Virus record (IMG/VR): IMGVR_UViG_3300035698_005189
Location: 1-64,000 of that record
Reading direction: 5' to 3' (one strand)
Source of the DNA: a virus
Length of the DNA: 64,000 bases
In this document: positions 13,043 through 31,550 of the stretch, piece after piece
Numbering within the stretch: the stretch's first letter is position 1
Layout of the letters: each line of letters starts with the position of its first letter
Program-made: the position numbers and the translations under genes
Notes under the pieces: model-generated
Database searches by the model: none
What the model was told of the DNA's origin: nothing
What the model saw: only the letters and a program-made list of their open reading frames with translations

Positions 13043-16000
13043 CTACCTCGGGGTCTGTGGGGTCTGTGGGGCGCTGAGACGTAACCCGGGGATGGCCTTG
13101 GCGAGGTCCAGCCTGGATGCCGAGGACACGTCCTCTGCATGTACGGTGTCGTAGTGGAGCGGGTCCCTGATGGCGACGCCGGCTTGGACGTCCCGCATCA
13201 CAGTCTCATTGACGACCTGGCGGGCGCGGCTGGTGGCGCGGACCGATACCTCGGTCAGCACTGGGTACTGGCGCTCGTAGCCGGCGTGGACCGTCTGATC
13301 CTTGGTGCCCTTCTGCTTGTCGCCCTTGATGGTGACCGTCTTCGGCATGACACACGACACACCGAATCGCGTCACGTTGACGAGATACTTCTTGGTCTTG
13401 AGGATGGCGCGGTCGGTTGGGCTGAGTTCGTCGATGACGGCTCGGGCGATATCCTGGTCAGTCACAACCACTCCGCCGGGGGCGGCCCGCATGGAGGCAC
13501 CGACGCGCACCCGGCGCTTGTCGATATAGCTCATGATCTCGTCGGCCCTGATAGCCAGGTAGATCGCAGTCGGATCAAGGGAGGACGTACCCTCGAGGAC
13601 GTACTCGGCCCCGGCGAAGGCGGCCCGGTCCTCTGGGCTCAGCTTGTCGATCGCTGCGGTGACGGCAGCCACGGCGCTGTCGGTGAGAGCCACCGGGTCG
13701 TCGTAGGTCCCGACAGCCGGGTCGGTGGCCGTCACGCCGCCGATGGGGAAGTCGATGACGTTACCCGACCCACCTGGGATCGGCGTGGTCTTCAGGTCCT
13801 CCAGGACGGCGGCTGCGTGCTCCGTCCCAAGGGTGGCGGCGACGTTCGCCTTGTTCGACAGGGCGGCCCACTCCTTGACCTGGGTGTCTGTGGGGTCGTT
13901 CGTGTCGCTGTGAACCATCATCGCGGCCGACTGGCTGGCGATGACCCGGCACGCGGCCTCGATGCTCTGCGTCGGCAGCTGCTTGCTGGCGTATTCGCCG
14001 AAGCTGAGGGTGAGGCCCTTCACCTCGCCCTGAGGGGCTCCACGCGGGGCAGGGCGGAAGGCATCGGGTTCCATCTCCTTGAGCTTGGTCACCGGGCCTG
14101 GGGTCGTGACGATATCCTCGACGTTGACCCACTTGTAGCCGGTGGCTCCGTCGGCCTCCTTGTACGACACTGGGACCACGGAGAACTTGGGGGACTCGCC
14201 AGGGGCGGCCTCGGTATCGAAGCGAGCCTCGGGTCGCTCCGGGTCGGGAGCGAGGTCGCGGTTCATGAACGCGACTCCGGTCGCACCGGCTGGGACACCC
14301 AGGGCTGAGACGATCCGGTCATCCTTGAGGGACTGACGGACTGCCGGCGGGAGCATACGAGCGCAGCGCGTGATCCGCTGCATCTCGGAGGCGGGGGAGC
14401 CGAGCGAGTCATACATGGCCAGCTCGGTGGCGTTGCCGAAGTTGAGGCCGACCTGGGCGGCGTCGGAGCACACAATGGCTTCGCAGTTGTTGAAGACGTC
14501 GCGCTTCTTCGGTGTCAGGGCCTCCGTGGTGGTGGCCTCCTTCTTGACGATCCCGGCGTACTCTTCCTTGAGGACCGCGTAGGCTTCCTTGCCGGCGGCG
14601 AAGGCGGCCTTGGCTTCCTTCTGCTCTTCGGGGGTCTTCTTATTGAGGTCGATCAGAAGGTCGTTCGGGTCACCAGCCAGGGCCATCTCGCGGAGGATAG
14701 CCGCCGATCGCTTGGTCCCGTAGAAGTACTTTTGAACCGCGTTGGGCCCGGACCCGTCGACCCAGAAGGCCTCCGGGGCATCGATCTTGAACTGCTGCCT
14801 GATCTTCTTTCGCGTGTCGTCGGTGAACTGGCTCATCTTGATGCCGGTTTCGTCTACCTCACCGGAGTAAGCGACCCACTTTCGGCCCCGCCCGAGCTTG
14901 TCCACGAAGACAGAGGTCTCCATGTCGCGCCCGAGCCTGTCCTTTACCTTCTTGAAGATCTCGGCGTTCAAGTCGCGGTTGCCTGTGTAGGTGGACCCGA
15001 TGTAGGTCACGAAGTAGCGACCGTTAGGGGAGGGTCCGGAGTCGGCTGGGTCGTAGTGCGGGCTACCCTCGATGGACTCGTTGACGTCCCTGAAGCCCAT
15101 CGTCCTCATGGTGGCCTCCATGGTACGACACCCGTCGAGGATGCCCCCAGCCATCATCACGAGTTGGCGGCGGCCCTCGGGCCCGTCGATGCCGCCTGGC
15201 CCATGGAACTGACCGACCCAGCCGGCCAGCTGCTCGGCCTTGGCGTTGCCGACCACCATCGCTACGTCGGCCTTGGCGCGCTCGTCACGGTGGCCGGGGT
15301 CGAAGATGCACGAGACGCGGGCCGCGACCTTCTTCTGAGCCACCCAGGTCGCTGCTCCGTCATCCTGGTTGACGACCACGCACTCCCCGACATGCTGCCC
15401 GGCCTCATGGGCCTCGGCGGTGGCTTCGGCGTCGTACTTGAACAGCGGGGGCTCCCACTCCTTCTTTTCAGTCGCTGACAGGCCACGGTCAGGCCTGACC
15501 CCGGCGTTGCCCTTGACGTCCACGATATCGCCTGGCTTGACCTTGTCGAAGCCACCGGCGCTCCTGGGCTTGCCGGTGTCCGGGTCGATGTCCTCGGGAC
15601 GGTAGAGAAGGTGGAGCGAGCCACGGGTATCGGACACCCAGCCCTCGCCCTCCATCACTGTGACGCCGCCGTAGGTTACGAAGTCGTGGTGGATGGTCTG
15701 GTCGGGTCGGATGCTCATGAGGCGCGACACCTCAGCTGGGTCGGACCCATCCTCGGTGGCGATCTGCTTGATGGTCTCGGGCATCCCCATGACGACCACG
15801 CGCTCAGACGGCTGGCCTTCGTCGTCGACCACGACGGCTACGCCCTTCTTGCCGATAAGCTCCCGGGCGCGGCGCTGGATCTCGATCGCCTTGTCGATGT
15901 CTGGGTCTGGCGGGGCGGGGGTGTCGGACCCGCGACAGCGGATACCGAGGGGACCCGCCTCCGGGTTCTGCACCTTGCGGGGCCAGCCATCGGCTCGCAT

Positions 16001-19000
16001 GGCCTTCAGTTGGGCCTTCGTGATCTTGGTACCAGCCACAGCACCGTAGTCGGCTCCGATGATATCGCGGAGGTGGAGCGTGTAGACGTCGGCCTCACCG
16101 GGACCACCCTCGAGGTCGGTGACCTCAGGCCAGCGACCAGCCCACTTGCCCCTGATCTTCTTGTCTGTGAACCAGTCAGGAGACCGAGTGTAGAAGTCGC
16201 CCTTGATGGCGTTGTCACCGGCGGACCGGCTGATCTGTACAAACTTCGAGTCGGACTGCGGCTTGTAGGCCGGGCAGTTGGAGATGGCCTTGGCTGCCAG
16301 GACGTTGCGCTTCGCGTCTCCGCTGAGGCCACGGAGTTCGTCTGCGCCGACCCAGCCACCCTCTGTGATCTTGTCCTTGTCGGCGTCGGTGAGCTTGGCC
16401 AGGTAGGCTGCGTACAGGATCGCCTGCGTGCCGGTCATATGGGCAAAGTGGGTCTCGTCCATGCGGGTAGCTGGGAGGGCCTTGCCCTTGACATCCTTCG
16501 TAGTGACGATGTGAGTCCAGCGACCGATGGTAGCGGCCACTTCCTCCCGCTTCTCGGGCTTCACGGAGATCTTCGGCCCAGCCGTTGCGGCCCCGGTGAG
16601 TCCGGGTACGACCGACTCTTCGAGGTACTCCTCGACGAAAGAATTGCGACTCATGCCGCCCCACTGCTCACCACGCGACAGGATCTTGACGTACTCGAGG
16701 AAGTCGGCGGGGCTGGTGGTCATCGGCGTGCCCGTCATGAGCACGACCATCTTCATCTTGTCGTTCCACCGGCGGAGGGCCTTGTTGCGGAGCGACGTGG
16801 AGGACTTGAGCCCGAGATGGGCTTCGTCTCCGACGAGGCCGTCGAAGCCAGCCGCGATGAGCTTATCTTCGTTGAGGGCCCAGTACTCGGGCCCGACTAC
16901 GACTGTGTCCTTACCGTAGGTCCCATTCTCGACACCCTTGAGGAAGGCGTCGGCTGGGATGTCGTTGGAGCCGGCCCCGACGACATGGCAGCCTACCGTG
17001 GTGAACGTATCGGAGGCTTCCCGCCACTGGTCCACGGTGTTGAGGGGAGCGACGATGATCACCTTCTTAGGTGCGTCGGGGTGGCGCTGGGTCGGATCGG
17101 CTGGGTCAAGGAGCGCCATCATCGTGCGAGCGCAAGTCAGGGCTGTTACGGTCTTGCCGGTCCCCATGAAGTGACCCAGTAGTCCTCGTCCCGCGTTGTC
17201 GAGGACGAGCTGGGTGCCGGCGGCCTGGTGGTCGGCCAGGGTGAAGGGCACCCCGTTCGGGAGGACGGCTCGCAGGCCTGTGGGGGCGAGGACGCCCGGG
17301 ATGCCGGCGGCCAGGACCTTGGGGTCGATATCGCGTAGCTCGAGGATGTGCTCCTTCTTAACGGCGCGGGCAGCGATCTCGTTCAGGTGGTCGGCCCTGT
17401 CGCGTAGGATGGCTTCGGCCTCTGAGGTAAGCGACAGACCGCCAACGGTCTCGCGGAGATTGGCGAACCCGGCGATAGACACGACCAGCGCGCTACCTGG
17501 CCCCTTGTGCTTATCAATCCGGTTGATGCCTGGCAGCTCCATAAGGTCGCCGTCATTCACACGACCCGACGCAGGGGTCAAGATCCGGAGTTCAGATGCG
17601 ACCACAGCGCCAGTCCGCTTGTCGACTTCGTCATGGCGGTAGATAAGTAGGCCGTCGGCCAGCCGCTCGGGGGTGGTCCCGGGAGCCACGGGGCGGACGG
17701 TCCGCCTGATCTCGTCCTGAGAGAACCGGACAAGACGACGCCCGGCGGCTCCGCCGCCTCCGACGCCGATGAAGATGTGTCGGTCAGGCCAGTCCTCAGC
17801 TGTCCAGTCCTCGACGTTCTCATCGTGGTTCTTGGTAGCAGGGTCGAGGATCGCAGTCTTCCAGTCGCGGTGAGCGGCGTCTTCTGGGTACCACCCAGGC
17901 AGTAGGCCGCCTCGCATGAGCTTCACTTCGGCCTTGGTGGGCTTGAAGGGTACAGGCGGCTCACGGTCGCTGCGCTGGAGTTCCTGGGGGTCGCCCTCGG
18001 CTGACGGTGGCATCCGGTCCCAGCCCGGGGGCGACGGCTTCTCGCCAGCCGGCTTGCCGGGCTCGATCCCGGTGTACTTGGCGATAACGTCCTTACCGCT
18101 CTTCCGGTCGAGTTCGGCTGGGGAGGCCTCGACGACGACGTTGTCGTATTTCTCGGGTACCCACTTCTCGCTGCGGACAGCAGGCTTCTTGATCCTGATC
18201 TTTTCGCCAACCACTGGCGCACGCGATACCTCGGTTCCGCCGAGCTTGACGACCGTCTCCCGGATGGTGTCATCGGGGACGGGGGTCGAGATGATGATAC
18301 CACCTTCGCCGTCGAGGATGGGGTCAGCGTCGTAGCCCTTGGCTATCAGGGCGGCGGCGAGTGCCGTGAGCCCGGCCCGGGTCTTGTCGTTCTTCTTGGG
18401 CTCCTTGGGGGTGCGATTCTTCGCCTTCTTGCCCGGCTTCTTGGGTACGACCAGCCGCAGGTTGGCGGGCTCGATCTTTACTCCGGTACCGCTGTAGGTG
18501 ACGTGGACGAGGGATTGGTCTTTCTTGATTCCCAGCTCATGGCCCATCGCCTCGAGGTCGGCCTTGATGCGATACGCCAGATCCTTCGACGCGGTCCGGT
18601 GCTCACCGGGGGTCGCTGGGACATGCTCGACGTCGGTGTGGCGGTAGCCGCCCACAATCCGGCCCTGACCCAGGAGGTCGTCGAGACGAGGCTCCTTCTT
18701 GCCGGTACGACGCTCCCACTCGGTACCGAGCAGTCGGGGCTGACCCCGCCCGTCAAACTCGACCTGGACGTGGAAAAGGTGACCGGTGTCGCCGCCGGTA
18801 GTATCGGTTGCGACCGAGATCCAGGCACGACGACGCTCCGAGGCGGCCTTTTTGCATAGATCCTGCAGGTGCTCGGGCGAGCGGACGTCTTCGAAGCCGC
18901 CGGGGGTCAGTAGCTCTCGCCACATCGGGGACTCGATGAAGAAGCGACCGTGACGACCGTCCTCCCCGGACGTATCGGCCAGGACGTCTATCGCAGTCTT

Positions 19001-20950
19001 GGTGCCGTCCGGGTTGTCGTTCAGGTAGGTGATGCGGGCCCGCCGGGGGAGCATGGAGCCATCGGCTTGCTTGTCGAGGATCAGCTGGTTCGCCAGGAAC
19101 TTGCCGGTAGTCGGGTCCCTGGTGACCTCTCGCATAGCGTGTCGTGTATTCTTGGTCAGCCAGCCCTTGAGGGCCTCGGCGTGAGCCTCGGGGGTGGTCG
19201 CAGCGCGGAGGGCGTCCCACTCCCGATGGCCTGCGGCGTCGAAGGCGTCATAGGCGAACGTTCCTGACTTCTGTCTAAAGTCGTTGGCTGTGATCTCGAC
19301 GGGAAGGTGGGGGAGGGCGGCCTCGGCCTCGGTGGCGTCTTTGCCGAAGGCGGTCCGTCCCAGCGCCCGGAGGTACTCGTTGAGCTGACGGCGGCGGAGG
19401 GCCTTGATGTTCTTGGGGTCCCGGGAGTCGAACCCCATGAGGTCGGCTACGTCTGCGTGCTCGTCTGGGAGGGCGTCCTGGTTCAGGTACCACCAGGCCT
19501 TCATCGTGGTGAGCGGGTTGCCGTCTCCGTCGTACATCTCCTTGAGTTCGCCGATGCGTGGGCGGACCTTGGAGGCCTCGGGGTTGGTCGGGTCCCAGCC
19601 CATGACTGGCTTGTCTGGGGAGATGGGGCCGACTCGCATGAACATGGTTCGACCGGATACGCTCATCTCGTAGAAGCGGTCGTAGTTGCCCTGGTTGCCG
19701 GTGGCTTCCCGGTTCGGTGGCGGCATCTGCAGGAACCCGGTCGCTGGCGGGCTTTCGGAGACACGGAGGGCTGTGGCGACAGCCGTCTCCTTGGTTTTCC
19801 ACCAGGCCAGCCGGTCATCGTCCTTGGCCATGTCGAGGATGCCGACACACCAGTCGGCCTTCTTGGCAGCCTCCCGGGCGGCAGCTGGGTTGGTACCAGA
19901 CAGGCTCTCTGCGATGGCCAGGTGCTTGGCTTGGCCTGCCTCATCGGTCGCCAGGGGGCGGAGGACGTCTTTACCGAAGAACGACCTGAAGAACTCGTAA
20001 GCCCCAGGCGCGGCGACAGCGAGGTCGTGGGGGTACATCACAGCGGCAGTGAACGACTCAGCCCAGCGCTCGAAGTCATTCGTCAGGGAGTAGGGGGTGA
20101 CGCCCTTCTCCTTATCGCCGCCATCTCGCATGAACTTGATCCAGTCAGCCCAGACAGGTCCGTCGTAGTCTTTGTTGACGTCCCGCGCCTTTTCGCCTCC
20201 GTGAGCCCCGAGCTTGTTGTGTACGGCGTGCGCCATCTCGTGTACGAGGCACTCGACCATGAACGCCGAGCCCTTCATTCGGTGGCCCCAGCCGCCCTGG
20301 CACTTGTCATCGAGGATGGTCAGGTCTGTGACCATGTCGCCATTAGCGTCGTAGGAGGGGGAGGCCAGGCCTGCCCAATTCACGCCGTTGATCTTCTTTC
20401 GTCCCCGGGGGTCCTCGTCGGCGGTCGTGAACTTGATGTTACGAATCAGGCCATCGAAGTTGTCCCGAATGATGGGCGGGAGCAGTCGCTGGGCGGTGTC
20501 GACGGCGCGGTAGTTGGAGATCTGGGCGCCATGCGGATCGTCAGGCTCGGTGTCGCCGCCGTTGTAGAGCTTGTTGATCCCGTTCTCGTACACCTTCTCC
20601 GCCTGCTTCGACAGGACGATGTGAGGCGGCTTCTCCCAGCCCAGGTAGGCCTCGAGGTACTCCGATGACAGGGCCGATAGTCGCTTTCGGGCTCCCTCAG
20701 TCTCCGGGTTCTCCTTGGCGAAGTCGGCCTTGGTCCGATGCACCAGCTTCTGGTGGGTCGCATCGGCTGCTGTGACGTCGGCAGCGAGGCGCTCCATCCA
20801 CTTCCGGCGCTTGTTGTCGTCTGGGTAGTAGTAGACCCACGCGAGCTTCCCGTTGACCATTCGCCTGACGCGCTTCCAGTACTTGTGCGACCGTGAGGTG
20901 CCACGCGAGAAGCCACTGGCGGCCTTTGCGATGCTGAGTCCGGGCTTCAT
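13043..20950 (-). CDS. Giant polyvalent protein: zincin metallopeptidase + SNF2/SF2 helicase (DarB-like, no methylase seen)
   Basis: HEMAH...YSLTNDFERWAESF (zincin); GHFMGTGKT (motif I), DEAH (II), TGTP (III), SDAAQVGLN (V), QRITRCAR (VI). Confidence 0.85.
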   Translation of the reverse strand: MKPGLSIAKAASGFSRGTSRSHKYWKRVRRMVNGKLAWVYYYPDDNKRRKWMERLAADVTAADATHQKLVHRTKADFAKENPETEGARKRLSALSSEYLEAYLGWEKPPHIVLSKQAEKVYENGINKLYNGGDTEPDDPHGAQISNYRAVDTAQRLLPPIIRDNFDGLIRNIKFTTADEDPRGRKKINGVNWAGLASPSYDANGDMVTDLTILDDKCQGGWGHRMKGSAFMVECLVHEMAHAVHNKLGAHGGEKARDVNKDYDGPVWADWIKFMRDGGDKEKGVTPYSLTNDFERWAESFTAAVMYPHDLAVAAPGAYEFFRSFFGKDVLRPLATDEAGQAKHLAIAESLSGTNPAAAREAAKKADWCVGILDMAKDDDRLAWWKTKETAVATALRVSESPPATGFLQMPPPNREATGNQGNYDRFYEMSVSGRTMFMRVGPISPDKPVMGWDPTNPEASKVRPRIGELKEMYDGDGNPLTTMKAWWYLNQDALPDEHADVADLMGFDSRDPKNIKALRRRQLNEYLRALGRTAFGKDATEAEAALPHLPVEITANDFRQKSGTFAYDAFDAAGHREWDALRAATTPEAHAEALKGWLTKNTRHAMREVTRDPTTGKFLANQLILDKQADGSMLPRRARITYLNDNPDGTKTAIDVLADTSGEDGRHGRFFIESPMWRELLTPGGFEDVRSPEHLQDLCKKAASERRRAWISVATDTTGGDTGHLFHVQVEFDGRGQPRLLGTEWERRTGKKEPRLDDLLGQGRIVGGYRHTDVEHVPATPGEHRTASKDLAYRIKADLEAMGHELGIKKDQSLVHVTYSGTGVKIEPANLRLVVPKKPGKKAKNRTPKEPKKNDKTRAGLTALAAALIAKGYDADPILDGEGGIIISTPVPDDTIRETVVKLGGTEVSRAPVVGEKIRIKKPAVRSEKWVPEKYDNVVVEASPAELDRKSGKDVIAKYTGIEPGKPAGEKPSPPGWDRMPPSAEGDPQELQRSDREPPVPFKPTKAEVKLMRGGLLPGWYPEDAAHRDWKTAILDPATKNHDENVEDWTAEDWPDRHIFIGVGGGGAAGRRLVRFSQDEIRRTVRPVAPGTTPERLADGLLIYRHDEVDKRTGAVVASELRILTPASGRVNDGDLMELPGINRIDKHKGPGSALVVSIAGFANLRETVGGLSLTSEAEAILRDRADHLNEIAARAVKKEHILELRDIDPKVLAAGIPGVLAPTGLRAVLPNGVPFTLADHQAAGTQLVLDNAGRGLLGHFMGTGKTVTALTCARTMMALLDPADPTQRHPDAPKKVIIVAPLNTVDQWREASDTFTTVGCHVVGAGSNDIPADAFLKGVENGTYGKDTVVVGPEYWALNEDKLIAAGFDGLVGDEAHLGLKSSTSLRNKALRRWNDKMKMVVLMTGTPMTTSPADFLEYVKILSRGEQWGGMSRNSFVEEYLEESVVPGLTGAATAGPKISVKPEKREEVAATIGRWTHIVTTKDVKGKALPATRMDETHFAHMTGTQAILYAAYLAKLTDADKDKITEGGWVGADELRGLSGDAKRNVLAAKAISNCPAYKPQSDSKFVQISRSAGDNAIKGDFYTRSPDWFTDKKIRGKWAGRWPEVTDLEGGPGEADVYTLHLRDIIGADYGAVAGTKITKAQLKAMRADGWPRKVQNPEAGPLGIRCRGSDTPAPPDPDIDKAIEIQRRARELIGKKGVAVVVDDEGQPSERVVVMGMPETIKQIATEDGSDPAEVSRLMSIRPDQTIHHDFVTYGGVTVMEGEGWVSDTRGSLHLLYRPEDIDPDTGKPRSAGGFDKVKPGDIVDVKGNAGVRPDRGLSATEKKEWEPPLFKYDAEATAEAHEAGQHVGECVVVNQDDGAATWVAQKKVAARVSCIFDPGHRDERAKADVAMVVGNAKAEQLAGWVGQFHGPGGIDGPEGRRQLVMMAGGILDGCRTMEATMRTMGFRDVNESIEGSPHYDPADSGPSPNGRYFVTYIGSTYTGNRDLNAEIFKKVKDRLGRDMETSVFVDKLGRGRKWVAYSGEVDETGIKMSQFTDDTRKKIRQQFKIDAPEAFWVDGSGPNAVQKYFYGTKRSAAILREMALAGDPNDLLIDLNKKTPEEQKEAKAAFAAGKEAYAVLKEEYAGIVKKEATTTEALTPKKRDVFNNCEAIVCSDAAQVGLNFGNATELAMYDSLGSPASEMQRITRCARMLPPAVRQSLKDDRIVSALGVPAGATGVAFMNRDLAPDPERPEARFDTEAAPGESPKFSVVPVSYKEADGATGYKWVNVEDIVTTPGPVTKLKEMEPDAFRPAPRGAPQGEVKGLTLSFGEYASKQLPTQSIEAACRVIASQSAAMMVHSDTNDPTDTQVKEWAALSNKANVAATLGTEHAAAVLEDLKTTPIPGGSGNVIDFPIGGVTATDPAVGTYDDPVALTDSAVAAVTAAIDKLSPEDRAAFAGAEYVLEGTSSLDPTAIYLAIRADEIMSYIDKRRVRVGASMRAAPGGVVVTDQDIARAVIDELSPTDRAILKTKKYLVNVTRFGVSCVMPKTVTIKGDKQKGTKDQTVHAGYERQYPVLTEVSVRATSRARQVVNETVMRDVQAGVAIRDPLHYDTVHAEDVSSASRLDLAKAIPGLRLSAPQTPQTPR

Positions 20951-21259: not shown

Positions 21260-23371
21260 TTACCTCGTGCCGGTTCCGTTCTTGAAGAGTGCGGTCATCA
21301 TACCAGACAACCCACCGCTGGGCTGCTTTGCGTTGACGTCGTGGACCGTCCCAGGGGCGCTAATAGCCAGCTCTGGATCTACTTCCGTGTGAGCGGTCAT
21401 CGCTCTAAACTGAGCAATCCGCTCCTTGTCGCGCTGCTGCATGTATGCTCGTCTGGTCGACTCGACCTGCGACGGCGTGCTCGTGCCGGCTACTTCGGCG
21501 TCGAGCTGGGCTCCTACGGCATCGGCTGTGCCAGCCCGGGAGGCGGCCTGGTAGACGTAGACTCGCTCGTCGGTGCCGAATCGCTCCTTGAGGTCACGGT
21601 GCGATGGGCCCGAGGCCTCGAACTCAGGCCAGACCTCTTCGGAGGCCACCCACTGGTCGATCCGGTCCCGGAACGACGCATCGCGTGCGGTGGCGACTCG
21701 CTTGAAGCTCTCGGTTGCTGTGTCGAGCGCAGCGGCGGCTGCCCTGCGCTTGGTCGGGCGGGACTTGCCCTCGGCGAGCCCCAGCGCCTCTGCGACGTCA
21801 TCGAGGGAGCCTGGCTCGCCGTCATTGTCGAGACCGAACCTGACCCGGAGGGCTGTGCGGTTGTCGCCGTCGGCCATGGCCCCGAGGACGTCGTCTACTT
21901 CCTCCCTGACGTGGAGGGCGGTGCCGGCTGTGTAGGCCCCAGCCCCGCTCATCGGTAGGATGGCTTCCTGGTGGATGAGCCACTCTTCATTTCCGACCAC
22001 CCGGTCGCCACGGACGAGGTCGCCCAGGGTGTGGACGAGTTGCACCTTGCCGGGGTGGTCCTTGCCGAGTTCGTCCCCGTTGGGGGTCTTGATCTTCCAG
22101 GGACCGTCGGGGACCTCTTCGGAGCCCTGGTCGATGGTCTTACCGTCGTCGGTGACGTAGTTGCCGAGGTCCTTGCCCTGGTAGACGTCCCGCTTCTTCA
22201 GTCGCCATTCCGTAGCGGTCTTCTCCGGGGTCGGCTCGATGCCGAGGCCCTTCTTGCGGGCTCTGGTCCTGGCAGCGATGAGCCCGCCGATTACCTTCAT
22301 CTTCCTGTCGGGGATGGTGATGCCGGCCCCGAGTTCGGTCCGGGCCGCCTGCAGGGCGTAGGTCATGGCGAAGTCTTTGGCGTGCCCCAGGAATGGGGAG
22401 CCTCCTCCGTACGTCGACAGGCCCATCGCGAATCCGTAGTGGGCTCCGCCCAGAAGCTCTTCGTACGCGGCGGATGGGCCGCCTCCGGGAGCTACGCGTG
22501 CGATACCGTACCGCTGAGCGATACGCTTGGCTGCCCCGTGGATGAGCGGACGAAACTCAGCGAGCGTGGCAGCCTGTTGCTGCTTGGGGACCGCTACGCC
22601 GTCCCGCCACTTGCCGAGCGAGTTCTTCACCCGCAGGACAGCGAAGCCGCTGTGCTCCATGTCGTGCAGGATGGTGCCGGGCTCTGCGCGTGACTCAGCG
22701 AAGGGCTTGAGGCGACGAGCGGCGTCGGACACCGGGCCCTCTTCGGATGGCTTTTTGGGAGGCTCCACATTTACCGGCCTGCGCTGAGGCGGGGGCGGAG
22801 GTGGCTGGTGGCGCTTAGGAGGCGGGGGCGCGTCCTCTGGGGGCTTGGGTGGCTTCGCCTTCGGCTTCGGCGACTCCCGGCGGAGGGGGACGAGAGTAGT
22901 CTCCCTGGCCAGGTGGTGGCTGCCGGGGCTGGTGACCGAGGTCACCCAGACACCGCCTTCGGGCGCGGCGGCGTGGTCCGGGGTGACCCGGTAGAGGCCC
23001 TGCCTGCCTCCGACCTCAACGACGTCGCCGGCCTTCACGTTCTCGTAGGTCCTGGTGGGGTCGCGTTCCCAGGGGTGGGCGTCGTGCTCACGGTGTCCTG
23101 GGTACCAGTACTCGTAGCCCTTAGAGCCCTTGGCCTTCTTACGATATCCGCCCTTCTTGCCGCCGGGGATGGCTGCCCAGCCAGCGCCGGGTGGGGCATG
23201 AATCGCCTTGCTCAGGTCGGCCTGAGATTCCTCAGCTGCGATCTCGTCCCAGGCCTCACGGAGGCCGGCGGGGACGGGGTACCACTCGACATCGCGGGTT
23301 CCGTCGTCAGCGAAGTCACCGTCAACCATCCGAGGGTCCACCGGGACCGGGAGGGCTGCTACCTTGGCCAT
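21260..23371 (-). CDS. Divergent sigma70-family factor with long N- and C-terminal extensions
   Basis: Region 2 'EFRPLIHGAAKR...YEELLGGAHYGF...FLGHAKDF', region 3 'ITIPDR...GIEPTPEKTA', region 4 'VDDVLGAM...RTALRVRFGL...SLDDVAEALGL'. Confidence 0.8.
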   Translation of the reverse strand: MAKVAALPVPVDPRMVDGDFADDGTRDVEWYPVPAGLREAWDEIAAEESQADLSKAIHAPPGAGWAAIPGGKKGGYRKKAKGSKGYEYWYPGHREHDAHPWERDPTRTYENVKAGDVVEVGGRQGLYRVTPDHAAAPEGGVWVTSVTSPGSHHLARETTLVPLRRESPKPKAKPPKPPEDAPPPPKRHQPPPPPPQRRPVNVEPPKKPSEEGPVSDAARRLKPFAESRAEPGTILHDMEHSGFAVLRVKNSLGKWRDGVAVPKQQQAATLAEFRPLIHGAAKRIAQRYGIARVAPGGGPSAAYEELLGGAHYGFAMGLSTYGGGSPFLGHAKDFAMTYALQAARTELGAGITIPDRKMKVIGGLIAARTRARKKGLGIEPTPEKTATEWRLKKRDVYQGKDLGNYVTDDGKTIDQGSEEVPDGPWKIKTPNGDELGKDHPGKVQLVHTLGDLVRGDRVVGNEEWLIHQEAILPMSGAGAYTAGTALHVREEVDDVLGAMADGDNRTALRVRFGLDNDGEPGSLDDVAEALGLAEGKSRPTKRRAAAAALDTATESFKRVATARDASFRDRIDQWVASEEVWPEFEASGPSHRDLKERFGTDERVYVYQAASRAGTADAVGAQLDAEVAGTSTPSQVESTRRAYMQQRDKERIAQFRAMTAHTEVDPELAISAPGTVHDVNAKQPSGGLSGMMTALFKNGTGTR

Positions 23372-23372
23372 G

Positions 23373-24863
23373 CTACACGTCCTCGAAGAGAGTCGGATTC
23401 GCCCCGGCCCGCTCCACAGCCCACTTCCGGAATACTTCGGGGTGGATGTAGGAGGCCCGGGCGACAGCTGGGGTATTGTTGATCAGGGAGGCGACCTTCT
23501 TGGATGCGACGAACATGGCCTTAGCCAGGAGGCGCTTATCGCTCTTGGTGTCACCCGTGAGCGGCGGAGGGGTGTCGGTGGCGTTGATGGATCGCTCCGC
23601 CTCCTTCGTCGCCAGGATTGTCCGCAGATCCTTCAGGTACATCCCAGCGGGGAGGATGTCGCGCGACGCAGCGAGGGCCGCTCTGCCGAACAGCGGACGG
23701 TTGCGATGGCCGCCTCCCTTGGTGTAGTGGGACACGGCCTCAGCGATAGCCTTGTTCCTGATCGTGGCGGTGTTGGTCTTGCCCTGTTTCCCGACGAAGT
23801 CGAACTTGACCACGTTGCCCTCGACGGAGACGTGAGCCGACGTCAGGGTGGAGACGCCGTAGCGGCCTGCCAGCATCCCTGGCCCACCAGGCCGGAGGCC
23901 AGTCTTGGCGATAATCGCAGTGATAAGCGCGGCCTGATGGTGACGCGACCCAGGCTCGGCCCGGGACAGCTTCGACTGGATGCCTCGCACGATCTTGGGG
24001 TGGTCCTCGATAAACGACTGGACGCGGGCCCACTTGGCGGCGTCGGAGGCAGCGTGGAACTCGGGGGTATACCCGGACTGCGGCCGACCGGCCCTGTCTT
24101 TCCATCGGATGACAGCCGTCTTGTGCGGGTCGCCGTCGAGGCGCATGGTGATGGCTGGCAGGGGGATGGCGGCCTCGGGCAGCTTGCTTACGCCGAGGGC
24201 CTTCAGTCGCGCCAGGACGTTCGGATGTAGCTGGGAGCCTGGCGGGCGGTGCTTCTCGGGCTTCTTGGGTCGCCCTCGCGTAGCGGGAGCCCCAGCCTTC
24301 CACGGGATCGTATGCTTGGCGTCGGCCCACTTACCGCCTCGAGGCCCGATGAAGGGGCCGCCCGACTTGGCCAGGATGATGGCGGCACCGAGGGAGGCCT
24401 CACCTGAGGCAACCATGGCCCCGAAGTCATCGAGGGAGATCTCGGTGACCCCGGCTACGGCCTTGCCTCCCAGCGGGTGATGGGCGCAGAAGGCGTCGAG
24501 GGCTGCATCGCGGTCTGGGAACCACAGGAAGATCTTGTCTTCGTCATACCCGATAGCGCTGGGGTCGTAGTCTTTCTGGTGAACGACGTAGACCATTTCG
24601 TTGGTCGGGTCGGGTCCGACGTAAGCATCCACAGGCTGCCCATCGGCCCCGAGAGTGCCTTCGACCTCGCCGTACGGGAATCGCATCACGGCGGCCCACG
24701 GCTTGCCCTCCGGGTCCCGGCCCCGCCGGACCTGGCCGGCTGCGTTCTCGACTGCGACGGTGACGCAGGGCGAGATGGCTATGCGGCCGACGAAAGGGAA
24801 CGGGTCCCGGTTGGGGCTTGGGGGAGGGAGCATGGCCCGGCCACCCTTCGACGCGATGATCAT
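23373..24863 (-). CDS. InPase (inorganic pyrophosphatase-like) domain fused to DNA topoisomerase IB
   Basis: N-terminal 'ENAAGQVRRG...PYGEVEGTLGADGQPVDAYVG...VVHQ...YDEDK'. C-terminal Topo IB catalytic set: TGLRPG, FVGKQG, KDLRT, NNT, ASYIHP. The start at 24863 overlaps the MuF stop (ATGA). Confidence 0.88.
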   Translation of the reverse strand: MIIASKGGRAMLPPPSPNRDPFPFVGRIAISPCVTVAVENAAGQVRRGRDPEGKPWAAVMRFPYGEVEGTLGADGQPVDAYVGPDPTNEMVYVVHQKDYDPSAIGYDEDKIFLWFPDRDAALDAFCAHHPLGGKAVAGVTEISLDDFGAMVASGEASLGAAIILAKSGGPFIGPRGGKWADAKHTIPWKAGAPATRGRPKKPEKHRPPGSQLHPNVLARLKALGVSKLPEAAIPLPAITMRLDGDPHKTAVIRWKDRAGRPQSGYTPEFHAASDAAKWARVQSFIEDHPKIVRGIQSKLSRAEPGSRHHQAALITAIIAKTGLRPGGPGMLAGRYGVSTLTSAHVSVEGNVVKFDFVGKQGKTNTATIRNKAIAEAVSHYTKGGGHRNRPLFGRAALAASRDILPAGMYLKDLRTILATKEAERSINATDTPPPLTGDTKSDKRLLAKAMFVASKKVASLINNTPAVARASYIHPEVFRKWAVERAGANPTLFEDV

Positions 24864-25819
24864 TTCTTCCTCCTGACGAGCCTGCCGGCTACGCCGATAA
24901 CGGTCGGGACCGCCTGGCCAGACCTCCAATCCTCGGGAAACCGTAACATATCGGGAACGCGGAGCATCGAGCAGGCGCACCAGGGATGCATCGTGCCCAC
25001 CACGGCCTGCCAGTCGGCTTGCTTGCGACCGACGTTGGTTCCATTGTCGGTAAGATCGTCCAGGTAGAAGATCCGGGGGACACCACCCGAGAGGTAGAGT
25101 CGGATGCAGTGAGGGCAGGCGGTCGCACGCGGGAGCTTGTAGACGCGCTGGCGGCGGCCCTGCGGGGCGGACTCCTGCCACCGGGCGGCCTTGCCTTCCT
25201 GCACTGTGTTCTGGAACTCGGTCTGAGCTATTCGCTGCAGGTCACGGGTCCAGTCTTTAGTGAGGTGTCCCATGTCGCTCGTCATGCGGCTGACGGTGGA
25301 GCGGAACTGGCCGTCGAGGAAGTCGTCGGTCAGGCCTTCCTCCGCCCCGATCTCCTTGAGGCGGGCGGACGCATCCTCGTCGCCAAACCTGGCGGCCACG
25401 ACATCGCGCATGATGCCCCGGAGGCGGCGGTCCAGCGCGGCGTCGGCTTCGACGAGCATCTTGCCGGTGGCCTCTTCGACCCGGTTGCCCAGGCCGACGA
25501 CATACTGCGCGGCACGGGCGGACGCGATCTCAGCTGAGAGGCGCTCTTCCCGAGTCTGCGGGATCGGGCGGTCAGCGAAGTGCGCCATACCAAGATCGTA
25601 TCCGGGGCTGCCGCTGGCGGCGATGGCTGTCCCGGCGGCGAACACAGGAGCCACCAGGCCAGGCGACGCGTCCTCAACGAGTCCGAGCCCAACGGCTGCA
25701 CGCCAGTCGAGCTTGGTGGCGGAGGACTTGCCTCCGATGGCGGCGGCGGCAGCCGCGTGGTTCCGTCTGAGGACCTCGGCTACGCGTCGTCGCACCTCTG
25801 GGGTGACGAGGCGGGCCAC
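24860..25819 (-). CDS. MuF / SPP1 gp7-like head morphogenesis protein
   Basis: 'LQRIAQTE', 'ACPHC', 'HPWCAC' motifs; downstream of portal. Confidence 0.85.
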   Translation of the reverse strand: MARLVTPEVRRRVAEVLRRNHAAAAAAIGGKSSATKLDWRAAVGLGLVEDASPGLVAPVFAAGTAIAASGSPGYDLGMAHFADRPIPQTREERLSAEIASARAAQYVVGLGNRVEEATGKMLVEADAALDRRLRGIMRDVVAARFGDEDASARLKEIGAEEGLTDDFLDGQFRSTVSRMTSDMGHLTKDWTRDLQRIAQTEFQNTVQEGKAARWQESAPQGRRQRVYKLPRATACPHCIRLYLSGGVPRIFYLDDLTDNGTNVGRKQADWQAVVGTMHPWCACSMLRVPDMLRFPEDWRSGQAVPTVIGVAGRLVRRKK

Positions 25820-25823
25820 CGGG

Positions 25824-26407: not shown

Positions 26408-26410
26408 CGA

Positions 26411-26941: not shown

Positions 26942-26971
26942 GATGGATCTCCAGGGGGTGTTGGGTCAAGG

Positions 26972-28627
26972 TCATACGTTGATCTCGTATCGAGTCACCC
27001 GCGCCGGGCGGGCTGGCCACTCTGACCTTATGGCCTTCTCAGCGGTGTCGTCCAGCTCGTCGCCCCAGGCACCGTCCCCGTCCTCGGGACTGAAGTCGAA
27101 GTCGGCATCGGATGCCTCGTCCTCCTGAGCCGGTTCGCCAGGCGCTCCGGGCTCACCAGGACCACCCGACCCGCCGCCCATGTCGGGCTGCTCTGCGGCT
27201 TCCTGGGCTTGCTTGTTCTGGAGCCAGGTCGGGTCGAGGATGATCTCACCGAGCCCGTCAGGCATCGGCTCCATCCCGGCGGAGTCGCGGGCTTCGTCGA
27301 CCGTAACGAAGACCTTGGTCTGCTTGGCGAGAAGTTCGGCTTCGGCGTCGGGGCCCTTCTCGGACAGGCCCACGGGGACCGCCTCGAAGTCGTCGTCGAG
27401 CTGCCGGACGAAGTAGGTGTTGAGGCACTCGAAGAGCCACTCGACCAGCGGTCGCAGACCGAGGTCGCGCGACGCCTTGAGCTTCTCTTCGATGGACGAC
27501 TGACCCATGGCCCCAGACTGCCCGGTGTTCCCGTAGCTGAAGTTGACCTCTTCGGGTGCGATCTGGAACCGGGCGCAGACGACCTTGATCAGGAAGTCCA
27601 GCCAGGAGCTGTACTCCATATCACGATTCGACATCTGCATGTTAATCCACTGCAGCTCTTCGGCGTTCGTGATCGGGGTGCGCCAGGCGTTGGATACGCC
27701 GCTGACCATCGCGTGCCACTGGCGGCGGAAGCCGTCCAGCTGGCGCGACGGGATCGGGCCCTTGAAGTTGAGGATTCCCTTGGTCGCTGAGCCCTGTGAG
27801 AAGAAGCGACGATTGTACTCCATACCCCACAGGAACCCCGTGATCTCACGGACCAGGGTCTCGATCTCGGAGATGCCGTAGCCGTAGGCATGTAGAGACG
27901 TCCTGGGGTTGCGGGTGCAGAACGCCATCTCGTCTGGGGCGAAGTCGGCGAAGACCGACCCGTTGATGACCTGGACGGCGTAGGGGTCGCCTGACGACCG
28001 TGTGCCTGGGTCCAGCAGGCGGATGGTGTCGGCTGCGAGTAGGGACAGGTAGGCCGGCTGGCCCTTCCGGTTGCGTACGATCTCGAAGGGGGCCTGGTCC
28101 CAGATCAGGGAGTTCTCGACCATCATGCGGCCGAAGGTCCGGAGGGGTACGCCGTCCTGCGGGCGGTTGTCTGGGACCACGCCGGTCGTCAGGAGCAGCG
28201 CCTCCAGCTCACCGGCTCGCTTGTCGGAGGCCCGGGTGACCTTGGCCTTCTTGTCGCGGAGGCGGACCCGGAAGCCAGCCCCATGGCGATCCTCGGGCTG
28301 GACAAGGAACGTCGCCACCTGATTCGCCCGGACCTTGATGACGTCGGCGACGACAGGTACTCCACGACCGATCATCTCCATAGCCCCGTAGGACAGCGAC
28401 GTCGGCCGCTCCCGGTAGCCCATGGCAGCGACGAGGTCGAACGGGTCCCAGTGGAGCCCCTTGGGAGCCTCTTCGGTATCCTTGACGTTGCGGGCGGGGC
28501 TCGTGATGGTCCCGGGGTCGGCTGGCTGCGCCGACCGTGGGGCCTTGCTGATGGAGTCCTCCACGGCGACCGTAGCCCGTCGGGCCACGGCTCCGCCGAG
28601 AGATGTGAGGTCGTCGCGCAGGCCCAT
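26972..28627 (-). CDS. Portal protein (Twort-like)
   Basis: 'RNPRT...YGYGISEIE', 'NRRFFSQGSATKGIL', 'DMEYSSWLDFLIKVVCARFQIAPEEVNF', 'SRDLGLRPL', 'TVDEAR'. Confidence 0.92.
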   Translation of the reverse strand: MGLRDDLTSLGGAVARRATVAVEDSISKAPRSAQPADPGTITSPARNVKDTEEAPKGLHWDPFDLVAAMGYRERPTSLSYGAMEMIGRGVPVVADVIKVRANQVATFLVQPEDRHGAGFRVRLRDKKAKVTRASDKRAGELEALLLTTGVVPDNRPQDGVPLRTFGRMMVENSLIWDQAPFEIVRNRKGQPAYLSLLAADTIRLLDPGTRSSGDPYAVQVINGSVFADFAPDEMAFCTRNPRTSLHAYGYGISEIETLVREITGFLWGMEYNRRFFSQGSATKGILNFKGPIPSRQLDGFRRQWHAMVSGVSNAWRTPITNAEELQWINMQMSNRDMEYSSWLDFLIKVVCARFQIAPEEVNFSYGNTGQSGAMGQSSIEEKLKASRDLGLRPLVEWLFECLNTYFVRQLDDDFEAVPVGLSEKGPDAEAELLAKQTKVFVTVDEARDSAGMEPMPDGLGEIILDPTWLQNKQAQEAAEQPDMGGGSGGPGEPGAPGEPAQEDEASDADFDFSPEDGDGAWGDELDDTAEKAIRSEWPARPARVTRYEINV

Positions 28628-28629
28628 GG

Positions 28630-28992
28630 CTACCCCCGGGCGAGGATGGAGAGGGGGTCGACGAGTCGGCCACTGGGGGAGCGGACGGGCGCTCCCCGGT
28701 TGTCGATGGCGCCCACGGTGGCAGCCTTGACGACCGGCGCAGCCTCGAGGCCTGGGCCCCGGGTCCGGTCGCCCATGGTCAGGGCGGCCTGAGCGGTGTA
28801 GTCCGGAGCGACGTCGTAGCTGCAGACACCGACGAGGAGCGGTTCGGCCTTGACGACCTGCTCCACAGCCGCAGGGCTATCGGCCACGACAGGGGCCACC
28901 GGGGCGGCTTTGACGAGGTCGGGGTCGGCGGGGGATACGCGGGCGGGGTGGCCAGCGGTGAGGATGGCGAGTGCGAGGCGGTCGGTGGTCAT
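28630..28992 (-). CDS. Small protein with three V-K-A motifs
   Basis: DLVKAAP, QVVKAEP, PVVKAAT. Confidence 0.55.
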   Translation of the reverse strand: MTTDRLALAILTAGHPARVSPADPDLVKAAPVAPVVADSPAAVEQVVKAEPLLVGVCSYDVAPDYTAQAALTMGDRTRGPGLEAAPVVKAATVGAIDNRGAPVRSPSGRLVDPLSILARG

Positions 28993-31550
28993 TCTCTGCT
29001 CCTGAGTGTGGCGACCAGTTCGGTGGCCTGGCTGGTATTCATGCGGACCTCGTCATCGCTGACAAAGGAACCGGCGGGGACGGGGCCGAGGTCGCCGACG
29101 TCGCCCTTGATGACGACTGTCTCGTCATCGTGGTCTACCGTCATGCCGCCGAGCGACTTGACGAGGTTGCCGATGACGGCGGCCTTGGCGGCTGCCTTCT
29201 TGGCTTCGCCGCCCAGCCCGAAGTACCGGCGGACGGTCGTCTTGTGCTTCTTGGTGCCGTGGACAGCCGACAGGAGGCTGCCGGCGGTACTATGGACGGT
29301 GCCCTTCCAGCGGAAGGAGCCACCAGCCAAGACTTCGGCGTGACGATGGTCTTCGCCGTGTTCCTGGGCGTGACGGTCCCTGACCCGCAGGACCATGCCG
29401 GGCTGCAGGTCGTCTCGGTGGCCGTGCTCGTTGGTGGCGTGGGCCGCTCCGCGCTTCGGGCCCTTGGGGAGGGAGGGGGTCTTCTTCTTGGGTGGAGTCG
29501 GCTTCTTGGGTGCGACCTTCTTCTTGGTCGGCGACGTGTGAGCGCCGGCCTTGGTGCTGGCTCCATCCGCCATGTCGGAGCTGTACTCAGCCTCGATCCT
29601 TTTGCTACTGGACCCGCCGATAGCGTCCATATTGTCACGAGCGGCGGCTTCGTGGGCGCGGGCTGCGGCGGTATGCTTGGTTGCTCCCTTGGTGTCACCG
29701 GCGGCTCTGAGCTTCTTAGCCGATGCATGATGTGTGCCGGCTGTGCTCTGGTGGGCGTCTGCTTTCACGGTGTGAATCTTGCGGGACTTACTGCCTGGTG
29801 TGGGCTTCGCTGGGGGCTTGTGGCCGATAAGGCCGACGACGTCTGGGACCTTAGCTGCGGTCGCCTCACGACTGGACACAGACGCGGCCTCGGACGCGGC
29901 CTCGGCCCTCTTCGAGACGCGGAAGATCCCCTTTCCGCCAGCGTGGGCGGCTGCTGCCTCGTCGTGGGCCATGGCTGCCGTGTAGTGCGCCAGTGCGGCT
30001 GTCCTACCGGCGATGCCGGCGGCACTACTTCCGCTGCCGGCCTCGTCCTCGTGGCTGGCGGCCTTCTCCCTGTGCTCTGCAGCCTGGCGGCCGTGGTGGT
30101 GGGCGGCCTCGTTCACGGGCTTCTGGGTGCCTGTCTTGGGCTCTGTGTACTGGTACTCCCAGCCAGCCCCCTTGCGGCGTCGCTGTCCACCGTGCTTACC
30201 CCCAGGGATCGCTTGCCAGCCGCCTTCAGCCTTCACGATAAACCCGGAGTCGGCGGTCTGGGTACGGGGGAGAAGGAGGCGACCGGAGGTCGTGAGCATG
30301 GGGTTCGACATGGACTTTCGCACCTTGCTGGCGACCTTGTCGGACGCCGTTACGATCTTGCCGTGGTTGCGGTGGGCGAAGGCTGAGCCCATCGCAGCAC
30401 CGGCGGGACCCAGGAGGACGGCTCCCACAGTCGCGCCGAGGGCGAGGACTGCGAGGGTACGCAGGCTGTGGCCAAGAACGGACAGGCCTGCGCGGGTCGG
30501 ATGGGAGCGGCTGTGTCGTGCCTGGTGGCGGAGGGCAGCGATTTGCTTGAGCAGTTTCGCGTGCTGGGCCTTGTGCTTCCCGCCCGGGTCCAGGGTCTCC
30601 TCGATGGTCTTCGTAGTCCGCTCGACGACATGGGCGGCCCCAGCCAGCGACGCCGCCTCACGGGGGTCGGTCGGTGGCTGGTGGTCTTCGTCGGTCAGGT
30701 CGGCTGGCTCTACGACGCCGGCCCAGGCTGCGATGTACGCCGCCTCGTCGACAGGGGAGGTGTCAGCCCCGTCTGCGGGCTCAGGACCGGCTGGGGTATT
30801 GCCAGGGGCCTCCGACGGTGCTCCCGGGGCGGGGGCTGCGCCCAGCTTCTTGCCGGACGCCTTCTCCATTCGCGTCACGAGGGCGTCGAGGTGCTCCATC
30901 GTGTGGCCGGGCTTGAGCTTCCCACGGATGCGGATGCCGGCGGACTTCGCCTGCTTCCGGATCTCGCGGAACCGGGCGGCGACCTTAGGGTCGGCGTCGC
31001 CCTTGGCTGGGGGAGTGACCTTGTCGCCCTGGATCGGCTCACCGGGCTTCCTGCCTGGCAGGTTAGACGACCCGCCCCGCCAGTACTCGTACCCGTTGCC
31101 CTTCTTGCGGCGAAAGCTGCCCTTCTTGCTCCGGGGTGCCGGCTCCCAGCCAGCACCCGGGGGCCCAGCCTTCCTGAGTCGCACGCCATGGTCGATGACC
31201 TGGGGCGCGAGTGAGTCGGGAATGCCGGCCTGGCGGAGGACCTTGGGGACGTCGAATAGCTCGCAGGCGTCGTTCGCTACAGCATCGATGACGTTGGCCA
31301 GCTGCCGGGCGGTGGAGACGTCCAGACCGAAGGCGGACGCGGCCTCTTCGGCTGACTCGAAGTCGCGCTTGATGGGGCGCTGCTTCGGTCGCTCGGTCAC
31401 TGGGAACTTGGCAGAGAGCCACGCAGCCCGGTCAGGGTCGTTGACGTCATGCCAGACCCTATCGTCAAGTTCGGGATGCTTGCCTGTGGCGCGGCGTCGG
31501 GAGTCAGGGATCACAGTATGGACCTCCGACCTAATGTTACGCCGTCCCAC
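28989..31550 (-). CDS. 853-aa multi-module protein (two cargo motifs, hydrophobic segment, His/Ala helical repeats, RAMA/DUF2924-like C-terminal domain)
   Basis: Between terminase and portal; C-terminal 'PGMVLRV...AEVLAGGSFRWKGTVHSTAGSLLSAVHG...YFGL'. Confidence 0.7.
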   Translation of the reverse strand: MGRRNIRSEVHTVIPDSRRRATGKHPELDDRVWHDVNDPDRAAWLSAKFPVTERPKQRPIKRDFESAEEAASAFGLDVSTARQLANVIDAVANDACELFDVPKVLRQAGIPDSLAPQVIDHGVRLRKAGPPGAGWEPAPRSKKGSFRRKKGNGYEYWRGGSSNLPGRKPGEPIQGDKVTPPAKGDADPKVAARFREIRKQAKSAGIRIRGKLKPGHTMEHLDALVTRMEKASGKKLGAAPAPGAPSEAPGNTPAGPEPADGADTSPVDEAAYIAAWAGVVEPADLTDEDHQPPTDPREAASLAGAAHVVERTTKTIEETLDPGGKHKAQHAKLLKQIAALRHQARHSRSHPTRAGLSVLGHSLRTLAVLALGATVGAVLLGPAGAAMGSAFAHRNHGKIVTASDKVASKVRKSMSNPMLTTSGRLLLPRTQTADSGFIVKAEGGWQAIPGGKHGGQRRRKGAGWEYQYTEPKTGTQKPVNEAAHHHGRQAAEHREKAASHEDEAGSGSSAAGIAGRTAALAHYTAAMAHDEAAAAHAGGKGIFRVSKRAEAASEAASVSSREATAAKVPDVVGLIGHKPPAKPTPGSKSRKIHTVKADAHQSTAGTHHASAKKLRAAGDTKGATKHTAAARAHEAAARDNMDAIGGSSSKRIEAEYSSDMADGASTKAGAHTSPTKKKVAPKKPTPPKKKTPSLPKGPKRGAAHATNEHGHRDDLQPGMVLRVRDRHAQEHGEDHRHAEVLAGGSFRWKGTVHSTAGSLLSAVHGTKKHKTTVRRYFGLGGEAKKAAAKAAVIGNLVKSLGGMTVDHDDETVVIKGDVGDLGPVPAGSFVSDDEVRMNTSQATELVATLRSRE

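Follow-up and report, generated by a model that had tools for sequence, protein, structure and literature searches.

A sigma70-family module, a type IB topoisomerase and a zincin-SNF2 protein among the head genes of uncultured SPO1-related phages: candidate cargo for delivery from the capsid

Phages are known to take over the transcription of their hosts in three ways: by using the host sigma factor for early genes, by injecting a complete polymerase (as in N4 and phiKZ) or by injecting modifiers (as with T4 Alt). Here, we analyzed a stretch of 64,000 nucleotides (the window), namely the first 64 kb of the 98,094-bp IMG/VR virus record IMGVR_UViG_3300035698_005189, which has terminal repeats and a completeness estimate of 100%. 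Between positions 13043 and 31550 of the window, genes for head formation are found together with genes for a sigma70-like protein, a fusion of an InPase domain with a type IB topoisomerase (TopoIB), a giant protein with zincin-like and SNF2 parts and a protein of 853 amino acids (aa), g853. An earlier note on this DNA had interpreted these four proteins as a takeover kit that is loaded into the prohead, trimmed there and ejected with the genome, an interpretation that is partly supported by the sequence analyses reported below. On balance, it appears probable that these proteins (hereafter the cargo proteins) are produced late and enter the head, where the head protease trims them, before they are injected into the next host.

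The closest described systems are the phage-type polyvalent proteins, for which MuF, InPase, MPTase (metallopeptidase) and SNF2 were listed as domains and whose InPase proteins were regarded as packaged (Iyer et al. 2017, PMC5512222). That these four domains are typical of polyvalent proteins had already been claimed in the earlier note, and this catalogue bears it out. The present locus resembles the described members in its InPase, zincin-type peptidase and SNF2 ATPase domains, in a MuF-like neighbour among late head genes and in the 820-3000-aa multidomain chains of its relatives; a role as injected early effectors has been proposed for polyvalent proteins there. The joining of such domains in single chains was found for zincin with SNF2 and for InPase with TopoIB in the window, and for InPase with the sigma module in 34 of 43 relatives. 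In contrast to the described members, sigma70 and TopoIB modules are present here, and the parts of the chain are encoded by several coupled open reading frames (ORFs). In PMC5512222, there is no mention of 'sigma', and 'topoisomerase' occurs in a reference title alone. Other systems share single aspects with this locus. Reports on phiKZ and SPN3US (PMC10052503, PMC7411985, PMC5694885) describe transcription machinery that enters the head along with many other proteins, undergoes trimming at a short consensus motif shared with the capsid protein and is ejected. In these phages, the packaged enzyme is a complete multisubunit polymerase, and a sigma factor is absent (PMC7824862), whereas here a sigma-like factor alone would be delivered and the host core used. 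T4 internal proteins and Alt (PMC9026906; PMC5512222) likewise lose an N-terminal leader to the head protease and are injected, and Alt retargets the host RNA polymerase; the leader and the motif differ, and the effector here would be a sigma-like subunit, not a modifying enzyme. As for the giant, very large superfamily 2 (SF2) or SNF2 proteins encoded with structural genes have been found in virions in the case of P1 DarB and of Thermus phage Lalka27a, whose SF2 helicase has 1715 aa (bioRxiv 10.64898/2026.04.20.719267). By comparison, the giant of the window is a predicted virion protein, has no methylase and carries an N-terminal zincin-like part, a tag and K-[A/S] at both ends (see below). 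Our literature search returned nothing relevant on a packaged sigma factor or on a TopoIB in phage virions. The earlier note had known of no phage that packages both, and we also found no description of either module in polyvalent proteins. Injected polyvalent and ejection proteins are known, and the presence of sigma70 and TopoIB modules among them, as predicted here, together with the arrangement of tags and putative cut sites, does not appear to be described in the accessible literature.

The main evidence for head cargo comes from a short motif, a hydrophobic residue followed by any residue, Lys and Ala or Ser (h-x-K-[A/S]; an arrow marks the putative cut), which is shared with the structural proteins. 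All window features with coordinates given here and below are encoded on the minus strand. The major capsid protein (MCP; 9224-10699; phrog_752, 8e-79) is SPO1-like, being ~35% identical to the MCPs of SPO1-group myoviruses, and its propeptide border would be L-N-K↓A-L-T-A-G at residue 37/38 (10574-10603). The border context L-N/R-K↓A-L-x-A-G is kept in five relatives with divergent leaders (42-65% identity) and in SPO1. The scaffold-like protein (296 aa; 10757-11647) has 10 sites compared with 1.5 expected from shuffles, the scaffolds of relatives have 6-12, and that of SPO1 has 11 when counted as h-x-K-[A/S/G]. In the head maturation protease, the site L-A-K↓A-L-S-A-G (11905-11937) follows the catalytic domain in an MCP-like context that is kept in relatives and in SPO1, and the portal has an N-terminal site, I-S-K↓A (28532-28558), with L-S-K↓A near the N terminus of the SPO1 portal. 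No site was found in the large terminase subunit TerL, the MuF-like protein and most tail proteins. Such a distribution is expected of a recognition site of the head maturation protease, and we infer from these sequences that h-x-K-[A/S] serves as one. The cleavage motif of phiKZ and SPN3US ends in Glu, whereas the motif considered here ends in Lys.

In every cargo protein, one copy of the site sits immediately before a peptide rich in Gly, basic and aromatic residues (the tag), an arrangement reported in the earlier note and recovered here in all four proteins. Three variants of the tag could be distinguished. Variant A (PPG-x-GW..IP-GGK-x-GG-x-R...YWYP) follows L-S-K↓A in the sigma-like protein (23096-23215; motif hidden Markov model (HMM) 1.2e-17), where it was modelled as a beta-hairpin (strands 76-79 and 86-89; predicted local distance difference test (pLDDT) ~84) behind a low-confidence leader. 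It occurs twice more in g853 (31071-31178 and 30141-30239; motif HMM 1.8e-10 and 3.9e-10), which also matches the N terminus of the sigma-like protein by BLASTP (5e-8), and the HMM found no others in this genome. Variant B (GGP-F-IG-x-RGGKW...IPW) follows L-A-K↓S between InPase and TopoIB (24300-24374), and variant C (GF-x-RG...HKY-x-+R...GK-x-x-W-x-YYY) follows I-A-K↓A at the N terminus of the giant (20822-20932; conserved in 12 homologues). In this genome, variant A by HMM and variants B and C by pattern scans were confined to proteins of the head module. A 40-aa tag query gave no match in GenBank phages.

The association of site and tag was also found in relatives. In the genome and 31 related loci, the variant A HMM recovered 63 instances, 55 of them distinct, often two or three per chain and in ORFs of up to 3066 aa. 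An h-x-K-[A/S/G] site lies at most 30 residues upstream of 45 of the 55 distinct instances, compared with 17% of control windows; the nominal P-value of this association is inflated because the instances share ancestry. Each of the nine variant B instances in the genome and loci has the site directly ahead, and variant C lies within ~10 residues after the site in 12 of 12 distinct homologues of the giant. The giant also ends in such a site, L-A-K↓A followed by a short tail (13046-13105), and K-[A/S/G] with a hydrophobic tail of 10-20 aa was observed at the C terminus of 11 of the 12 distinct homologues (the exception being L016/L017). In the ORFs of 2112-3066 aa from the more distant phages L020, L025 and L026, Q-x-G-L/M-F-G stands between K-[A/S] and the hairpin at several domain joints and might be a second recognition element.

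The sigma-like protein (703 aa; 21260-23371) was examined by profile, structure prediction and fold comparison. It had no PHROG match, and tblastn against 50,697 GenBank phage records was also empty. A word search found six homologues, and a profile search found 388 clusters (50% identity) at E-values up to 1e-3, some of the weaker of which match the tag alone, with 84 clusters at E-values up to 1e-30. It appears that a large sigma-like family is unannotated. When the family profile was compared with the PDB, SigA/RpoD were the only matches, at 7.8e-5 for region 4 and with a weaker collinear match for regions 2-3 (SigA residues 169-269), and NCBIfam RpoD matched residues 486-537 of the window protein at 3.5e-4. 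A few of the 43 relatives exceeded Pfam cut-offs, namely 3 for Sigma70_r4, 2 for r4_2 and 1 for r2. An AlphaFold model built from 43 sequences had a mean pLDDT of 82, and the top 50 Foldseek matches were all sigma chains of RNA polymerase holoenzymes (best E-value 1.7e-3; probability 0.96-0.99). With VIA-align, model residues 230-570 (the sigma70-like module; 21662-22684) were aligned with residues 90-421 of Thermus thermophilus SigA, nearly the whole of SigA, at a Z-score of ~8 (8.3); the root mean square deviation (rmsd) of this full-module superposition is high because the domain arrangement differs. The sigma4 part alone gave a Z-score of 7.2 and an rmsd of 3.2 A against 3hug_E, with 73 of 73 residues aligned. 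The pattern of region 2.1-2.2, which makes core contacts, is kept throughout the family. Additional parts of the model are the hairpin at residues 76-89, a beta-barrel at ~100-165, a Pro-rich linker, a beta insert at 404-439 and a C-terminal helical domain at 580-697. Together, fold and profile point to membership in the sigma-70 family, from which a sigma activity may be predicted.

In the rest of the 98-kb genome, neither a second sigma domain nor a T7-type RNA polymerase was found. The other large genes encode PolA, RecA, an SSB with GYF repeats, CobT, an SbcC-like protein and a helicase; the SSB-like protein (L035:3044-4588; genome 65044-66588) carries a GYF_2 domain (5.7e-8). A sigma factor encoded solely in the last-transcribed module of such a genome would be most easily explained by action in the next cycle.

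The InPase-TopoIB protein starts at an ATG that overlaps the stop codon of the MuF-like gene (ATGA), giving 496 aa (23373-24863), and the raw ORF of 602 aa is a same-frame extension upstream. Its InPase domain, of the polyvalent-protein type, was identified with PF18823 (24411-24764; 2.3e-27, 96 bits vs a cut-off of 26.8). In the PDB, this domain matches the C-terminal part of the portal chain gp19 of Pa193 (7e-12). The matching residues, 636-758, are outside the built model (PDB 9B41), which spans residues 94-528, and the match is evidence for a fusion of InPase with a portal, not for a position in the capsid. The same portal and minor-head matches were found in PB1-like phages. The TopoIB catalytic domain (23421-24251) was assigned by PF01028 Topoisom_I (8.5e-16, 58.4 bits vs a cut-off of 23.7), and its best PDB relative is Deinococcus TopIB (2f4q, 9e-15). 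All five residues of the catalytic pentad R-K-R-N-Y align with the Deinococcus enzyme, which we take to define their roles. Among GenBank phages, the domain gave a single weak match, in an uncultured 485-kb phage.

The giant (2635 aa; 13043-20950) combines conserved zincin motifs with an SNF2-type ATPase (14354-17224; GTGKT at residue 1263, DEAH at residue 1375 and Helicase_C at 2154-2199). Both SNF2-rel_dom (2.5e-12, 46.9 bits) and Helicase_C (2e-5, 25.1 bits) exceeded the Pfam cut-offs. In the N-terminal part (20051-20242), HEMAH at residue 237 and ExxAExF at residue 294 represent an HExxH motif and a downstream ExxAExF that are conserved in 12 homologues with 24-42% identity. Residues 1-800 had no Pfam match at E-values up to 10 and no match to a zincin family HMM, and residues 1-1200 had no sequence relative in the PDB; the zincin-like MPTase is thus a candidate identity that follows from conserved motifs, not from an HMM. 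The fourth cargo protein, g853 (28989-31550), had no Pfam or PHROG match and no usable match in the ESM Atlas, leaving it with no assigned family. Between its two tags, at residues ~366-393 (30370-30460), it contains a long hydrophobic Gly/Ala-rich segment, and its middle fragment could therefore insert into a membrane. Its C-terminal half is of low complexity and rich in Ala, Lys and His.

The cargo genes are an integral part of the head module. Genes from 34374 down to 9224 lie on one strand, with no gap larger than 66 nt and several ATGA overlaps, in the order clamp-like, TerL, g853, g120, portal, g176, g97b, g97a, MuF-like, InPase-TopoIB, sigma-like, g102, giant, g100, Zn-ribbon ORF, protease, scaffold-like and MCP. 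The earlier note had described the cargo and head genes as co-oriented and tightly coupled, and all of them were indeed found on the minus strand with stop and start codons overlapping or nearly abutting. It had also placed g853 between the MuF-like gene and the protease; the gene actually lies between TerL and the portal, where homologues were also found in L018, L021, L022 and L028-L033. A search for this synteny in metagenomic phages, suggested in the earlier note, recovered the cargo block, located between portal and protease, from at least 12 uncultured phages: in these IMG/VR contigs (24-45% identity), the order is portal, g176, g97b, MuF-like, InPase(-sigma), g102, giant, g100, protease and scaffold. 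The head module of the SPO1 group (Herelleviridae) likewise has the order portal, protease, scaffold, MCP and the same h-x-K-[A/S] pattern in these proteins. In SPO1, the portal is directly followed by the protease, whereas this clade has ~14.5 kb of cargo genes there, in addition to g853 between TerL and portal; the ~14.5-kb insert therefore represents an addition specific to this clade.

In most of the syntenic relatives, proteins of 820-1650 aa begin with InPase and end with the sigma module, and InPase is present in 34 of the 43 relatives of the sigma family. Members of this family (P0008-P0114) also include four with an S-adenosylmethionine lyase domain and four with a SAP domain among the 43, and other domains were found in some. 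The former activity is a classic early anti-restriction activity. TopoIB changes its place: in L018 it is fused behind InPase, as in the window, in L008 it stands upstream of the portal as a separate unit behind tag B, and in the more distant phage L034 it lies near structural genes. The MuF-like protein and InPase form one chain in L019. Such an exchange of units between tags corresponds to how polyvalent proteins behave.

Taken together, these observations are best described by the following scenario. The cargo proteins would be made alongside the structural proteins and then taken into the prohead, the head maturation protease would cut them at h-x-K↓[A/S/G], and the trimmed products would be released with the DNA into the next host. 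Each unit would consist of a leader or carrier, a cut site, a basic and aromatic beta-hairpin tag and an effector, the carrier being a short peptide, a leader of ~55-125 aa or an InPase domain. After entry, the sigma70-family module would bind the host core RNA polymerase and steer it to phage promoters, and the type IB topoisomerase would relax the incoming DNA. The zincin peptidase and SNF2 translocase may counter restriction or strip host proteins from the DNA, as has been suggested for DarB, and g853 is possibly membrane-active. The full proposal that a large clade of uncultured phages related to SPO1 brings a sigma70-family factor in its capsids, along with TopoIB and a peptidase-translocase, and thereby controls transcription by the host core from the first moment, is more tentative, and we put its chances at somewhat below even.

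Several observations weigh against this scenario, in which late timing, packaging, cleavage, ejection and sigma activity are all inferred. Among the accessible papers, no experimental report or mapping of K↓A cleavage in SPO1-like phages was found, and K-[A/S] could be part of a conserved tag domain and not a cut site. A 204-aa Ala/Lys-rich helical protein encoded outside the window (L035:14271-14885; genome 76271-76885) has 7 matches compared with 2 expected, and a high motif score in such an unrelated protein means that motif count alone is no marker of head proteins. The giant has four internal h-x-K-[A/S] sites, which would need burial. The sigma-like protein of the window has no Pfam family at E-values up to 10, and PF04545 and PF04542 gave nothing in the whole genome. 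The conserved acidic D-x-D-x-x-D signature of InPase is altered in the window copy, which reads D-G-Q-P-V-D (24650-24670); relatives hold D or E at the middle position. Since the central Asp is replaced by Gln, this InPase may be catalytically weak, and judging from its sequence it may be a carrier domain instead of an active enzyme. The MuF membership of the 319-aa protein (24860-25819) is also weak by sequence and model. The earlier note had called this gene MuF, for which a head-morphogenesis-like fold match speaks; TIGR01641 was reached only at an E-value of 0.18, and no Pfam or PHROG match was found in 12 family members. Its model had a pLDDT of 69, and the Foldseek search on BFVD returned intein-bearing homologues (2e-9), then a 'phage head morphogenesis domain' (5.9e-3) and weak MuF-like matches. 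In view of the weak family hit, the blank Pfam and PHROG searches and the fold matches of this model, we call it MuF-like, a name that is unproven.

One alternative, which we regard as unlikely though deserving of attention, is that the proteins stay unpackaged and work inside the cell as late or middle enzymes whose genes lie in the head operon by chance. The sigma-like protein would then serve late transcription from an unrecognised internal promoter, TopoIB and SNF2 would process or package concatemers, and the tag would bind DNA or a partner. The phage sigma factors known to date, such as SPO1 gp28/gp34 and T4 gp55, do act inside the cell. The sigma factors of jumbo phages have also been treated as intracellular (PMC7824862). 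Enrichment of the cut-site motif inside the cargo proteins was considered and rejected, the counts being at or below expectation (6 vs 9.3 expected in the giant and 1 vs 2.3 in the sigma-like protein), which is in line with this alternative; a low count also fits survival in a protease-filled prohead and gives no positive support to packaging. A scan for sigma70-type promoters gave matches at chance level, and simple scans found no convincing internal promoter or minus-strand terminator. Such scans mean little for an unidentified host, so that they are uninformative here and internal promoters may exist. On the other hand, a sigma module that stands behind InPase in 34 of 43 relatives, amid other effector domains, would be an odd arrangement for a factor of late transcription. 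The cargo site is also identical to the MCP border, the giant is bracketed by the site in 12 of 12 distinct homologues at the N terminus and in 11 of 12 at the C terminus, and the position of the block between portal and protease is kept in at least 12 phages, all of which speak against this alternative.

The other two alternatives alter single steps of the head-cargo scenario and do not replace it. The proteins might be packaged while the sigma-like module has no promoter specificity and acts as a decoy or inhibitor of the host RNA polymerase (shut-off) or as a tether for the DNA end, a possibility to which we give little weight. It would account for the fact that region 2.1-2.2 is kept whereas no Trp residues are aligned to the Trp dyad of region 2.3 in a profile alignment that is itself weak, and for the additional N-terminal beta-barrel, internal beta insert and C-terminal helical domains. 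Region 2.3 aromatics function in promoter melting, and many alternative sigma factors deviate there. An intergenic k-mer enrichment revealed nothing convincing, and no repeated phage-specific promoter motif was found in this search, which also agrees with such a role; the search was crude, and the full sigma2-to-sigma4 arrangement with a -35-type helix-turn-helix (the sigma4 match described above), conserved across the 388 clusters (some matching the tag alone), argues for retained promoter recognition. The remaining alternative, that K-[A/S/G] with its hairpin is a joint cut by the zincin of the giant or, after entry, by a host protease and not by the head protease, seems improbable. The polyvalent-protein model does assign processing to MPTase domains (PMC5512222), the zincin motif is conserved in the giant, and Q-x-G-L/M-F-G in some relatives is a possible second recognition element for such an enzyme. 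However, the context K↓A-L-x-A-G is found at the MCP border, after the protease domain and in SPO1, where portal and protease have no such zincin between them. Joints with h-x-K-[A/S/G] and a hairpin thus match capsid maturation sites and point to the head protease over the MPTase.

The remaining features of the region are as follows. This phage has a G+C content of 66%, holds nearly every gene on the minus strand and has no close relative among the 50,697 GenBank phage records. The upstream edge of the head module consists of the clamp-like gene (33187-34374) and TerL (547 aa; 31537-33180; Pfam Terminase_6C, 2.5e-5), and related loci encode TerL at 38-64% identity. Between g853 and the portal (551 aa; 26972-28627; Pfam Phage_portal, 2.8e-23, which like Terminase_6C exceeds its cut-off) lies the gene for the small protein g120 (28630-28992), whose three V-V/L-V-K-A sites are its h-x-K-[A/S] matches (three vs 0.35 expected). 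The small ORFs g176, g97b and g97a are located between the portal and MuF-like genes, g102 between the sigma-like and giant genes, and g100 between the giant gene and the Zn-ribbon ORF. The latter (76 aa; 12505-12735) has two Cys pairs (CPGC ... CQRC); it occupies most of what looks like a 299-nt gap from g100 to the protease, its ATG overlaps the stop codon of g100, and a gap of similar size is present in related loci. The protease itself (11647-12438) was identified by phrog_1028 (6e-35) and has neither a Pfam match nor a sequence relative in the PDB. In L015, the MuF-like homologue (1585-3564, plus strand) has 660 aa, with an insert whose last residues, H-N, directly precede the conserved Cys of H-P-W-C-x-C. 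This insert looks intein-like, and the two best BFVD matches of the MuF-like model of the window are annotated as intein/Hint-bearing. In addition, two copies of a 40-bp element, identical at 38 of 40 positions, are present on the minus strand at 35023-35062 and 41274-41313, the only two in the 98-kb genome, and the first copy precedes the clamp/TerL head module by ~650 nt. The core 12-mer of this element was not enriched (8 matches vs 5.3 expected).

If the head-cargo scenario is true, injection of a sigma factor would add a fourth and cheaper route of transcription takeover by phages, and the protein described here would be the first virion-borne sigma factor. A TopoIB in the virion would parallel the poxvirus cores, which contain both a type IB topoisomerase and the apparatus for early transcription; poxviruses infect eukaryotes and have a polymerase of their own, and homology between the packaging systems is not implied. 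The leader, the h-x-K↓[A/S/G] site and the hairpin tag would together act as a general code for targeting and cleaving head cargo. This unit would then serve as a sequence rule for recognizing head cargo in metagenomic phages, and it could help to load foreign proteins into capsids.

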